This document shows, piece after piece, positions 16,888 to 43,779 of a stretch of 64,000 bases of DNA. Under the pieces are notes generated by a model. That model did not search any database. It was not told where the DNA came from and worked only from the letters and a program-made list of their open reading frames with translations. Positions within the stretch are counted from its first letter, which is position 1. Every line of letters begins with the position of its first letter. Source of the stretch: Octopus vulgaris (lineage: Eukaryota); assembly GCA_951406725.2 (NCBI GenBank), contig OX597831.1, forward strand, positions 9,486,001-9,550,000, given 5' to 3'. Position numbers and translations under genes: made by a program.

Positions 16888-17997
16888 AAGGGCGAATGGC
16901 ACCGCGAGTGTCGCGTTGCTCTCAAGCAACTCTGACGTCCCGGATCGACCGTCATTGACTCCAACACAACCCAAGCATTCTATAGGGGATTAGTGGAGGG
17001 GAGGTACGACGACGAGCTCGAGGCGAACCTGGACGTCGACGAGGAATACCTGACCCGCCTGTTCAGGACGACTTTCGGGCCAGGGCCCATGGACAACTTC
17101 TAGAGACCCCTGTCCCGGCAGTACTACCGAGAAGCGCTACCCGTTCGGGATAAGCTCTACAGACACGGCTCAAGAAACACGGGGCCGTCTTGCCCGAGAT
17201 ACGGTCAGAGCGACGAAACCGTTCTGCATTTACTCGTGCAGTGTCCAACGATTTCTGACCTGTGGGCTTATGTTGAACAACTAGTGTCACGTGTGGGACG
17301 AGTCGGTTTATCAGCCGAGTCTATCGTCTATATTGTCACGCCTCCTTCCTTCAAACGGGAAGGAAGAGCTATTTTCATCATCCTTGTGGCTATGGCGAAA
17401 AAATGTATCTGGTGGACGCGTCTGAAAGGATTGGAGACAAACACTTTGCTCTCTGGTCAATCTCTCATCAACTTCTTCAAGTATCACTTGAAAAGGAAAG
17501 TGAGAGTAGAGAGGCAAGTTTTGTCTAGCGAATGTTTTTAAAAAAGATGGGTGAATGTATCAAGGATGGCATGTATGAATGACGAGACCACCTTGAGCAT
17601 AATCCTATGAACCCGGATTTTGAAAACAGAGGATTACCCACTTGCAAACAAATGTGGTAACATGTAACAATATTGACCGAGGTTACCGTGGTCATTTCCG
17701 TAGGCTTTTCTTCCCACGGATAAACCTTATCTGCTTCCCCCTTTACACCGTACATCATGACACTGTGATACACGATCCCTATTGATCGTTTTTTTTCTTT
17801 TTCCCCTTTTTCATTGTTTTTCCTTTTTTCTTTTTTCTCTTCTTTTGATTCTTTTCCTTTTCTTTCTTATTTTATTCTTTCTCTTTTACGATCCCTTTTG
17901 ATCGAAAACCTACCCCACTTTTTTTTTCCAAAAAAAGAAAGGCTCTACTTTGTAATCTGTCCCGTCTGTGTGCAGCCCTGTGTGGCTAATAAAGAAA
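16888..17997 (+). mobile_element. 5'-truncated L1/Tx1-clade LINE: ORF2 C-terminus plus 3'UTR, inserted in (TATC)n
   Basis: ALPVRDKLYRHG...CPRxG..DETVLHLLVQCPTISDLW (L1-type C-terminal CCHC region) ...AKKCIWWTR; in-frame stops; pyrimidine-rich 3'UTR ending GGCTAATAAAGAAA. Confidence 0.85.
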
Positions 17998-40197: not shown

Positions 40198-40231
40198 ATA
40201 TATATATATCTTTCTTTCTTTCTTTTTCTTT

Positions 40232-40602
40232 TTTTCTTGTTTCAGTCATTTGACTGCGGCCATGCTGGAGCACCGCCTTTAGTCGAGCAAATCGACCCCG
40301 GAACATATTCTTTGTAAGCCCAGTACTTATTCTATCGGTCTCTTTTGCCGAACCGCTAAGTGACGGGGACGTAAACACACCAGCATCGGTTGTCAGGCAA
40401 TGCTAGGGGGACAAACACAGACACACAAACACACACACACATACATATATATACATATATACGACAGGCTTCTTTCAGTTTCCGTCTACCAAATCCACTC
40501 ACAAGGCATTGGTCGGCCCGGGGCTATAGCAGAAGACACTTGCCCAAGATGCCACGCAGTGGGACTGAACCCGGAACCATGTGGTTGGTTAGCAAGCTAC
40601 TT
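40232..40602 (-). mobile_element. Family B SINE, 3' portion (split by the ORF1 element; 5' end at 42850-42888)
   Basis: Runs to ...TGGTTAGCAAGCTACTT and resumes at 42850 as TGGTTAGCAAGCTACTT-ACCACACAGCCACTCCTGCGCC. Confidence 0.92.
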
Positions 40603-41156
40603 TATTTCAAAACATTTGCCATAAAGGCAGTACACAGATTAAGTTAGCTTTGCGGGCTGGACGAGGACATTAATGAGGTGAATGATAATGAAAGAAAGAT
40701 GATAAGGATGGGAGAAGACAGAAAGCGCCCGCCGACTTTTGCTTCTCTAAAACATTGTTCTTTTTAAAAAGATTAACACAAAACGAGGTATTAAACCTCT
40801 TACAATTTTTCCAATTTTGTGCTTAGCAGTCCATTATTAATACAAAACGAGGTATTAATCCTCTTACAATTTTTCAATTTTTGGACTTAAGTCCATTACT
40901 AATAATACATATCGTCCTCGAAATAGCTTGTGCCCGCGCCCTCCACCATCAACCACGCCTCCCTCAGAACGTAGTCAAGTTCCGAGTTCGCGTCGCCCGG
41001 GACCAAGTTATAATCTTCATTGAGCTCTTTAGCCCTAGCGTCACGTCGAACGCCACGGCCTCCACAGCTACCTGCGGAGGCCATTCGGGGTCCTGTGTGA
41101 AGGCTAAAGGTGCTCCCTTGTAGTGCTCTTCCATCACTTTTTCAATATCTCCTCCT

Positions 41157-42143
41157 CTATAGAAGAGGACCAATACATTCAGTTCTTTCGTTGGCGGCAC
41201 AGTTTCCGCCAACGGTATTCCTTCTCTTGTCGGTGGCACAACCCCAACCGACGTAGTTCCGCGACATTCCGGTGCCACACTGACAGCCGGCAACGTCCCG
41301 TTTTTCTTCCTCTTTTTCTTTTTTTTTTCCCTTTTCAACTGAGGGAGGGTGCGTCTCCTCCGTGGCTGGAAGATTCGCCCTCCTCTCCTCATCCCTATTA
41401 TCCTTTGGTGAGCACCCATTGTTGCTCACCTTCCTCTTTCGGCCTCTGCTTGAGGAGTCCTCTGCTTTCTCGGCCGTTATCGTTCCCTCTTCTAGAGGGG
41501 TTTTACTTAACTGTTCCGGGATCCTATTTTGTTCCCGAGGACAGTTCTTCTTTATGTGGCCGGACTCCAAGCACCGATGACACTTAGGGGGGCGACCCTC
41601 AAGCATCACCGGGTACCTGCACCCGGCCATTTTCAAAAAATCTGGAAAAACCAGATTGGCTGATTGGGTCCACAGGGTCAAAATTGCTTTCGAGCCAACC
41701 CAAGCAGCCGCAGGAAGAACTTTTACATTGAGGAGCTTAGTTTCGCTGTCACCCAGACCCCGGCGGATAGTCTCCTCTATCCACTCGGGTTCTATGTCGG
41801 GTGGCAGTCCGCAGATCCAAGCTTTCATCAATTTCTTTTTTTTGTACGTGGGCAGGAATAAGATTTCCTTACCCTCCAAGGGTTCGCTAGCAAATTTGCA
41901 AGCCTCTTCAGGTGTGTCAAACAGCAACCACACCGTTGCATATTTGACACCCCTGGAAATGAATTTAATTGTTGGCAAATACTCCTCCAACTCCTCCTCA
42001 ATTGCCGTCTTTTCGAATAGGGCGATGGTGTCAAGTGCCTTGGAGTAGGTTCTCAACACCACCGTCCTATCTTCACGGTCCTTCAACCACTTTTTGGGTG
42101 GTATGATTTCCCACTCCAAAACTTTGTTATTTTTCATTGCCAT
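41157..42143 (-). CDS. LINE ORF1/gag-like nucleic-acid-binding protein with CCHC zinc knuckle (328 aa; C-terminus possibly frameshifted)
   Basis: Only long high-complexity ORF in the window. ICGLPPDI...GCRYPVMLEGRPPKCHRCLESGHIKKNCP (Cx2Cx4Hx4C) is the layout of L1/Tx1 ORF1 proteins; charged low-complexity tail. Confidence 0.85.
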   Translation of the reverse strand: MAMKNNKVLEWEIIPPKKWLKDREDRTVVLRTYSKALDTIALFEKTAIEEELEEYLPTIKFISRGVKYATVWLLFDTPEEACKFASEPLEGKEILFLPTYKKKKLMKAWICGLPPDIEPEWIEETIRRGLGDSETKLLNVKVLPAAAWVGSKAILTLWTQSANLVFPDFLKMAGCRYPVMLEGRPPKCHRCLESGHIKKNCPREQNRIPEQLSKTPLEEGTITAEKAEDSSSRGRKRKVSNNGCSPKDNRDEERRANLPATEETHPPSVEKGKKKEKEEEKRDVAGCQCGTGMSRNYVGWGCATDKRRNTVGGNCAANERTECIGPLL

Positions 42144-42801
42144 GTTTTTTTTTAAATATATTCAAATTAAACTCAAAAGCAGGAAGAAAAAAGTTCAAAA
42201 GTCTAAATAAATTTGATAGATTTTTGAAAAAACAAAAAGGAGAAAGCACAACAGAAGGGAAGAAATTAACGGAAAGTCGCAATAAAGAAAAAACAAAAGG
42301 GGGGGGGGGTTAAATGAAGTTCAAAAGAAAGTTAATAAACAGAAAAAACACAGCAAAAATATTCTGGCCTTGCGGTACTCCCGGCCTGGGTTGAACCTGG
42401 AACGCCGCAACTGCAACACAACCTACACAAAAATGGGTCCGAAAGGTAATCCAATAGTGGCTTATTTTTATACTTTTCTTGCGAAGTACTCTGACAAGGG
42501 AATAAATTCAACAAATCCAAACACAGCACTGGCTACCGCCAACGGTGATTTTAACAGTAACTGTATTGAATTCTGAGGATACGCCCCTCCACTGTTTTTT
42601 CTTTTTTTTTTTTTTTTTTTCAATGAACACAAAAACGGCAGCCGCCTAGCGCAGGCGAAATTGTCTCAGAGTTGGACACAACCTACTGAAATAATAATTG
42701 GCACGCAATAAATTATGCCCAACTCACAATAAACAAAATCACTTACCTCGACAACTTTCCGTTTTTGGTCTTTTTTCTTTAGTTGGAAGGATCTTGTTAC
42801 T

Positions 42802-42840
42802 CACGTCCACTCTAGCTCAACAGGAAGCAACCGACTAACT
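42802..42840 (-). promoter_or_regulatory. Putative internal Pol II promoter (Inr + DPE-like)
   Basis: Minus strand CAGTTAGTC (Inr-like, A at 42836) followed by GGACGTG at about +29, right at the element 5' end. Confidence 0.45.
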
Positions 42841-42849
42841 GCGCATGTG

Positions 42850-42888
42850 TGGTTAGCAAGCTACTTACCACACAGCCACTCCTGCGCC
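42850..42888 (-). mobile_element. 5' end of the split family B SINE (includes the second TSD copy)
   Basis: Reverse complement GGCGCAGGAGTGGCTGTGTGGTAAGTAGCTTGCTAACCA. Confidence 0.9.
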
Positions 42889-42976
42889 TATATATATATA
42901 TTATATATTGTGAAATTTGATTTAGTATTTCTAAATTGAATTTTTCCCTGTAAGTTAGGACTAATATTCCCTCAAA

Positions 42977-43356: not shown

Positions 43357-43398
<42 letters not shown>

Positions 43399-43708
43399 GG
43401 AGGTGGCGAACACGTACATCGCGTCCCGCATCTGCTATCGCCTAACCGTTGTGCCTTGTTCTGACCTTTCCATCACCAAACTGGAATGCATTCTCTTCCG
43501 CTTCCCGTGGAAAGGAAGCGCTACGATGGTCAGGCGATCCGTTTGCTGCCAACACCTGTTAAAAGGAGGGATGGGCATGCCGTGGTCGATGATGCACAGA
43601 CACGCGCTGAGACTGCGACATCTCCGGCTCTACGTAGACGACGGTGAACAACTGTGGTCGCCGTTTGTGAAGCGCGCTCTTCCGCACCTCGTCTCCATGA
43701 CCGAACTG
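43399..43708 (+). mobile_element. L1/Tx1-clade ORF2 internal fragment directly after (TATC)n
   Basis: ITKLECILFRFPWKGSATMVRRSVCCQHLLKGGMGMP matches the post-RT F.F.W.G...V....C......GGLG.P motif of L1/Tx1 ORF2. Confidence 0.75.
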
Positions 43709-43779
43709 TGTATGTCTATATGTGTGTGAGTGAATTGGAAGCTTGAATTAAACTAAAGTATTAGTATGATAAGAAGGTA

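Follow-up and report, generated by a model that had tools for sequence, protein, structure and literature searches.

A multi-copy ORF1-only retroelement family inserted at a fixed base of an octopus SINE, with a full-length LINE of the same target as its likely helper in trans

In mammals, HAL1 (half-L1) is a non-autonomous LINE derivative that encodes only ORF1p and has several origins (PMC5753468); the ORF1 of mammalian-type L1 consists of a coiled coil, an RRM, and a CTD (type II, PMC4120745). In Drosophila, HeT-A and other ORF1-only telomeric Jockey elements rely on the ORF2 of a partner, lie head to tail with that partner, and give rise to new ORF1-only lineages (PMC13534243). Target-specific LINEs of the Tx1 clade include Xenopus Tx1, found in Tx1D, crocodilian Tx1-Mar, found in Mariner-N4 and accompanied by SINEU passengers, and Keno, Kibi, and Koshi; non-autonomous passengers in this clade use the same target, and tandem insertions sandwich a target site duplication (TSD) (PMC4494074). 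An octopus repeat annotation gives, in the text searched, L1-Tx1 counts only (PMC13282606). Half elements and repeat-targeting Tx1 elements are each known. In the literature searched, which did not extend to Repbase, Dfam, or most subscription papers, where such families may be recorded, we found neither the combination nor any cephalopod Tx1 element that is ORF1-only or targets a SINE.

We use "the window" for the whole 64,000-nucleotide stretch of Octopus vulgaris DNA analyzed here. Its minus strand carries, at 40603-42849, a 2247-bp insert flanked at both ends by a perfect 17-bp direct repeat, with the 5′ copy at 42850-42866 and the 3′ copy at 40586-40602 (spacing 2264). The insert interrupts a minus-strand SINE in the same orientation, and a BLAST alignment with another SINE copy of the window places the SINE head at 42890-42867 and the body at 40585-40221. 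The upstream part of the head (42867-42890) contains what we take to be an A-box-like motif, and the segment comprising the remaining head and body (40221-40585) contains a presumed B-box-like motif, both matched by eye to a consensus. ARAGORN found no tRNA gene in four loci, and an Rfam scan over three SINE copies returned no tRNA family.

The insert consists of a 706-nt 5′UTR (42144-42849), ORF1 (40899-42143, with the ATG at 42143 and the stop at 40899), and a 296-nt 3′UTR (40603-40898), which contains a 64-bp tandem duplication at 40772-40904. Neither of the two ORF pieces in the insert has a Pfam match to an endonuclease (EN) or reverse transcriptase (RT) family, and tblastn matches in the window to the ORF2 of the candidate helper LINE described below fall only outside the insert. 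A first-pass annotation of this DNA had described the same insert splitting a SINE head, the perfect repeat, UTRs of about 700 and 300 nt, and the lack of EN and RT, and all of these descriptions stand. It had also noted an AATAAA end; this motif, read from the sequence at 40601-40606, is present but straddles the junction, with four bases from the element and two supplied by the target. No poly(A) is present at the 3′ end of the element.

ORF1 encodes 414 aa in open copies and is broken in the window copy. Compared with an open copy (L003), the window copy has one base too many near 41328 and lacks one near 41028, resulting in a 328-aa product with a foreign tail. Both indels are in or next to homopolymer runs, and they may be real or may be assembly errors. 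The earlier description of ORF1 as protein coding holds for other members of the family, in which 12 of 30 copies keep an open ORF of 414 to 416 aa (18 of 30 are without a full open ORF).

We scored 40 of the 3311 candidates returned by a genome search with the insert. Of these, 27 were full length in one piece, with 96 to 100% identity and the same ends, two were full length with an internal change, and one was cut at 2141. The other 10 have bases 362 to 2247 in common with the insert and a different 5′ end in place of part of the 5′UTR, and we treat them as a sister subfamily. Across the genome, we detected 67 exact 5′ ends and 213 exact 31-nt 3′ ends, the latter including sister and mosaic subfamilies that have the same 3′ end; at least 150 places match the N-terminal part of ORF1 at 80 to 100%. 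The insert is therefore a complete copy of a multi-copy, non-autonomous, ORF1-only non-LTR family with fixed ends, which we call family A, and because its copies are 96 to 100% alike, they are recent. Copies continuing into an APE-RT ORF2 had been named in advance as evidence against such a family. In a sample of 48 of the 793 exact filled junctions, all of one pattern, 26 carried ORF1 only, 9 carried ORF2, 13 carried neither, and none carried both; ORF2 was likewise absent from all 31 half-type tails and from the region downstream of ORF1 at 20 further loci picked for a diverged or mosaic ORF1. The single exception seen (L097), in which a 3′-cut family A copy is joined to the end of a helper ORF1 and an ORF2, looks like a deletion within an array.

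Variants within the family were also recorded. At one SINE site (L103, G000:C1:39263492-39263579), we observed a roughly 90-bp non-coding derivative in which 46 bases from the start of family A are joined to 43 from its end. Seven copies share a frameshift from a shortened C-run; we suspected a spreading frameshifted subfamily and dropped the idea, as these copies are scattered over haplotypes and form no spreading clade.

Family A is site specific, occupying one fixed base of one SINE family in a fixed orientation. The sequence AAGTAG follows 208 of the 213 exact 3′ ends, that is, they abut the same SINE base, and all 30 of the 3′ ends taken in order of position were at the SINE site. The genome contains 53,949 exact empty sites. 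The first-pass annotation had expected different TSDs among copies; the TSDs are instead identical among copies because all insert at one SINE base, and insertion there is the rule of the family and no chance event of this locus. Over 1176 pairs of copies, median divergence was 7.5% for the SINE flanks and 1.7% for the inserts, making the flanks 4.5 times more diverged, which indicates separate insertions into pre-existing SINEs rather than hitchhiking as one unit.

The 17-bp repeat is perfect, as had been stated, but it is only partly a target duplication. Base 13 of the repeat is A in the 5′ copy of all 36 full-length copies and T in the 3′ copy of 11 of the 36 (Fisher p 0.0004), and SINE variants with A and with T at this base are both occupied. 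The sister 5′ end always comes with a repeat one base shorter, regardless of the 3′ copy. Because the base is fixed in the 5′ repeat while the 3′ repeat varies, we infer that some target bases arrive with the element and that fewer than 17 bp are truly duplicated; the last bases of the 5′ copy (42850-42866) would be element-borne, and the 3′ copy is SINE sequence. Around the target is an imperfect palindrome (TGGTAAG...CTTACCA, window 42850-42877, minus strand), and only SINEs of the T variant have it in full.

A candidate helper occupies the same site. At one locus (L061), a 5.4-kb LINE lies between the same repeats and has an open ORF1 of 467 aa and an ORF2 of 1133 aa with EN, RT, and zf-RVT domains. 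ORF2 was found at 3 of the first 30 junctions, and a full open ORF2 frame (1133 aa or more) was found in 14 among the 150 EN matches listed, of 8626 candidates. All six intact helper copies that we fetched end at the SINE site, five of the six also begin there, and the genome contains 108 exact helper 3′ ends. Older autonomous relatives (L087 and L089, 72 to 80%) also end at the SINE site. Among solved structures, human L1 ORF2p lies closest to the helper ORF2 (E 8e-67), and the helper protein has the L1-group features of an APE endonuclease, an RT, and a C-terminal zinc motif. The label Tx1 is a probable one; no named Tx1 reference was among the 11 matches returned for the helper RT, all of which are without names.

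At the DNA level, the half element and the helper are similar only in the last 36 to 37 nt (78%), a match that is weak by itself (E 0.036). This common tail holds a hairpin with a 4-bp stem (−5.7 kcal/mol; window 40617-40629, minus strand), the predicted RT recognition signal. Of 73 distinct tails, 66 fit the hairpin, some with two-sided changes, in counts that favor pairing, as the search pattern demanded a near match. Shared 3′ ends are regarded as a mark of stringent LINE recognition (PMC3747384). Because the target and the tail are shared, this intact LINE is likely the helper of the half elements in trans, and the L1/Tx1-group RT proposed in the first pass is the most likely source of mobilization. 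In four helper copies (L091-L094), ORF2 is intact and ORF1 is frameshifted (homopolymer errors are possible); ORF1s from elsewhere could make up for the defect. The same 5′ end opens both a half element and an autonomous subfamily (L076 and L201-L202), which suggests promoter exchange between helper and parasite. The window also contains Tx1-like, 5′-truncated ORF2 fragments at 16894-17990 and 43397-43710, placed after (TATC)n, with (TATC)n on both sides of the former. Their ORF2 is 51 to 54% identical to that of the SINE-site LINE and their tail is different; they belong to a different, (TATC)n-associated, microsatellite-targeting family, and the three-tier system that had been proposed from them, the insert, and a Tx1-tailed SINE is not supported.

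The ORF1 proteins of the half element and the helper are homologous, with 29% identity over 196 aa (E 1e-24), and the closest matches among publicly available proteins come from species of Octopus and Argonauta. In the window copy, a single CCHC zinc knuckle lies at 41541-41582 (minus strand, about aa 187 to 202), with a Pfam zf-CCHC match (E 0.005) that falls short of the curated cut-off. This knuckle bears out one part of the earlier description of ORF1 as gag-like with a CCHC motif; gag-likeness rests on the knuckle only. In 15 of 16 ORF1s, zf-CCHC was the only Pfam match, with RRM_3 matched once (E 0.013) and Transposase_22 in none of the 16, and a PDB profile search with ORF1 did not find L1 ORF1p. 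Look-alikes in the atlas score 0.89 to 0.90 and include ZCCHC3-type RNA-binding proteins (0.90). In type I non-LTR ORF1s, a CCHC knuckle immediately follows one or more RRMs; here, these look-alikes and the RRM_3 match may hint at an RRM, and the knuckle would lie downstream of a predicted two-RRM-like region.

ORF1 is under purifying selection across several ORF1-only families, as the dN/dS analysis proposed in the first pass revealed. Two further families of this ORF1-only kind, B and C, share about 50% identity with A, and dS between them and A is 1.4 to 1.6. For aa 1 to 205, dN/dS was 0.13 to 0.28 in the 10 pairs whose N-domains are collinear, and a recombinant pair gave 0.28; for the N-domain, values were 0.13 to 0.22 between A and B or C and 0.20 to 0.28 within the A lineage. 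Over the whole ORF, subfamilies consisting entirely of ORF1-only elements gave dN/dS of 0.19 to 0.37, and the linker and C-terminal domain are under weaker constraint (dN/dS up to 0.9). Because dS between families is about 1.5, the ORF1-only lineage is old, and the earlier description of the family as young applies to its copies and not to the lineage. Action of ORF1 in cis on its own RNA is established LINE biology, and since selection persists without a linked ORF2, we infer that ORF1 acts in this way here. In an unrooted tree with six autonomous ORF1s drawn from 150 of the 8626 EN candidates (L087 was left out for want of a long alignment, and six rows are less than half filled), families A, B, and C cluster with old relatives and with an Octopus sinensis protein in a single clade (100/100) that is separate from the autonomous ORF1s, and the same separation holds among 63 proteins. 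Because the tree has only six autonomous ORF1s, a closer autonomous parent, so far unseen, could exist. Two more ORF1-only families lie outside the A/B/C clade, G at the same site and E in tandem at another site; ORF2 may therefore have been lost more than once.

Elements at the SINE site are often stacked in head-to-tail chains inside single SINEs, with units separated by the target repeat. Examples are seven B units and a helper, six B units and an A, helper-B-helper, and G-B-G-helper. An element lies directly upstream of 9 of 30 A copies and after 17 of 30 B/C-type tails, compared to an expectation of 1.4% from occupancy. This excess could arise via serial insertion into open chromatin or via template jumping through the terminal repeat. 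The median number of differences was 12 between units within arrays and 26 between arrays. Several units nevertheless have their nearest relative in another array rather than in a neighbor, which favors insertion over local duplication as the probable source of part of the array growth. Mosaic families with a B-type N-terminus and an A-type end, and others with swapped 5′ ends, have spread. Beyond these, one locus (L212/L200, G000:C4:80137001-80147000) has six tandem copies of family E, each about 1.7 kb, off the SINE site and 1.3 kb from a SINE array, and another (L211, G000:C7:13488001-13498000) has a full-length LINE of family F within the ORF of a family C half element in an array.

None of the listed holders of the element is recorded as RNA. 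In run X1, which we guess to be RNA, one 2083-nt contig spans 40775-42859, and 7 of 30 bins of the helper have coverage; runs X2 and X5 cover both the half element and the helper. Because contigs show no starts, ends, or strand, this coverage is only a hint that the half element is transcribed. A perfect splice-donor-like GAGGTAAGT is located at window 42741-42749 (minus strand), about 100 nt into the 5′UTR, and a similar motif is in the alternative 5′ end of L030. Splicing of the 5′UTR is unsupported, as the X1 contig has no skip at this motif and the contigs show no splicing there.

Considering these data together, we regard it as very probable that the insert belongs to an ORF1-only family that occupies a fixed base of the SINE head and probably depends on the full-length APE-RT LINE with the same target for copying in trans. 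Under the proposed mechanism, an internal promoter would give an RNA that starts with a few target bases and extends past AATAAA into the target repeat, and ORF1 protein would coat its own RNA in cis. The helper ORF2 would bind the 3′ hairpin, nick the SINE, and prime reverse transcription; target bases at the 5′ end of the RNA would restore the site, so that reusable sites remain and arrays grow. A wider reading, which we put forward tentatively and consider rather doubtful, is that the tens of thousands of SINE heads form a dispersed landing pad for a consortium like that of HeT-A and TART, consisting of a single active LINE together with several ORF1-only parasites that are old and under selection. 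RNAs with the target repeat at both ends would let the RT leave one RNA at its 5′ end and continue at the 3′ end of another, laying down mixed arrays and swapping promoters and ORF1 domains.

Alternatively, each ORF1-only family might have arisen recently, when its own full-length parent underwent an internal deletion, in which case selection acted in the parents and ORF1 is now a passenger. The helper search, which covered 150 of 8626 candidates, leaves room for such parents, and the 90-bp non-coding derivative with both ends (L103) implies that ORF1 in cis is not absolutely needed. We nonetheless consider recent deletion improbable, given the separation of A, B, C, and their old relatives from the autonomous ORF1s in both trees, the whole-ORF dN/dS of 0.19 to 0.37 that persists in ORF1-only subfamilies, the failure of the seven scattered C-run frameshift copies to form a spreading clade, and the lack of ORF2 in 31 of 31 half-type tails.

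Passive spread without targeted insertion, whether by segmental or tandem duplication or within a composite SINE, is largely refuted by the 4.5-fold greater divergence of the SINE flanks. It also fits poorly with the occupation of both base-13 variants, the array units whose nearest relative is in another array, and the presence of several unrelated families and a LINE at the same base, so that we consider it very unlikely despite a weak correlation of insert and SINE divergence (rho 0.15) and the closer similarity of units within arrays, some of which may have grown by local duplication. We give similarly little credence to the idea that a different LINE moves the half elements, for example the Tx1-like family of the window that targets (TATC)n. 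Its fragments do exist in the window, and L087 and L089 show that older autonomous relatives end at the SINE site; however, the fragments are in microsatellite, with another tail and 51 to 54% ORF2 identity, and target choice is dictated by the endonuclease (PMC4494074). That the insert is a retrocopy of a host gene, a possibility raised in the first-pass annotation, has in its favor the lack of RT and poly(A) and the ZCCHC3-type look-alikes at 0.90, yet it is hardly credible for a protein homologous to the ORF1 of an autonomous LINE, in an element with a LINE-type tail and over 200 copies at one site.

Under our preferred reading, trans-copying by the SINE-site LINE, the question of why ORF1 is kept in cis although ORF2 can be borrowed can be approached in a system that is recently active and exact in sequence. 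The system combines an intact helper with several parasites whose ORF1s have diverged, a candidate recognition signal of 36 nt, and a defined site of 17 bp. It includes a LINE that exploits the SINE of another element as a high-copy target, and arrays that resemble those of Drosophila telomeres but arise elsewhere on the chromosome. For targeted-insertion work, a site-specific endonuclease of the L1 group is also of interest.

Compared with HAL1, the octopus element is likewise ORF1-only, multi-copy, and without ORF2, with its own fixed 5′ and 3′ ends. Its ORF1 has a CCHC knuckle and is not of the mammalian L1 type, and the family has a strict SINE target, a hairpin tail, and arrays, and no poly(A). 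It works like HAL1 and is not a member, since its ORF1 has no Transposase_22 or L1 ORF1p match. As with HeT-A, the ORF1-only elements lie in head-to-tail arrays with ORF2-bearing partners; in contrast to HeT-A, the arrays are interstitial, within SINE copies on many chromosomes rather than telomeric, the target is a sequence cut by an endonuclease rather than a chromosome end, and the helper, judged from its closest solved structure (human L1 ORF2p), is of the L1/Tx1 group rather than Jockey. Target specificity in the Tx1 clade has been defined by over 20% of flanks falling in one repeat (PMC4494074); here, the SINE site accounts for 6 of 6 fetched intact helper copies and 208 of 213 half-element ends. 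As in that clade, an APE-RT LINE aims at another repeat, non-autonomous passengers have the same target, and a TSD is sandwiched between tandem insertions. The octopus system differs in that the target is a SINE head used with single-base precision (208/213), the copies are 96 to 100% alike and recent, and the passengers are protein-coding ORF1-only elements rather than snRNA-headed SINEs.
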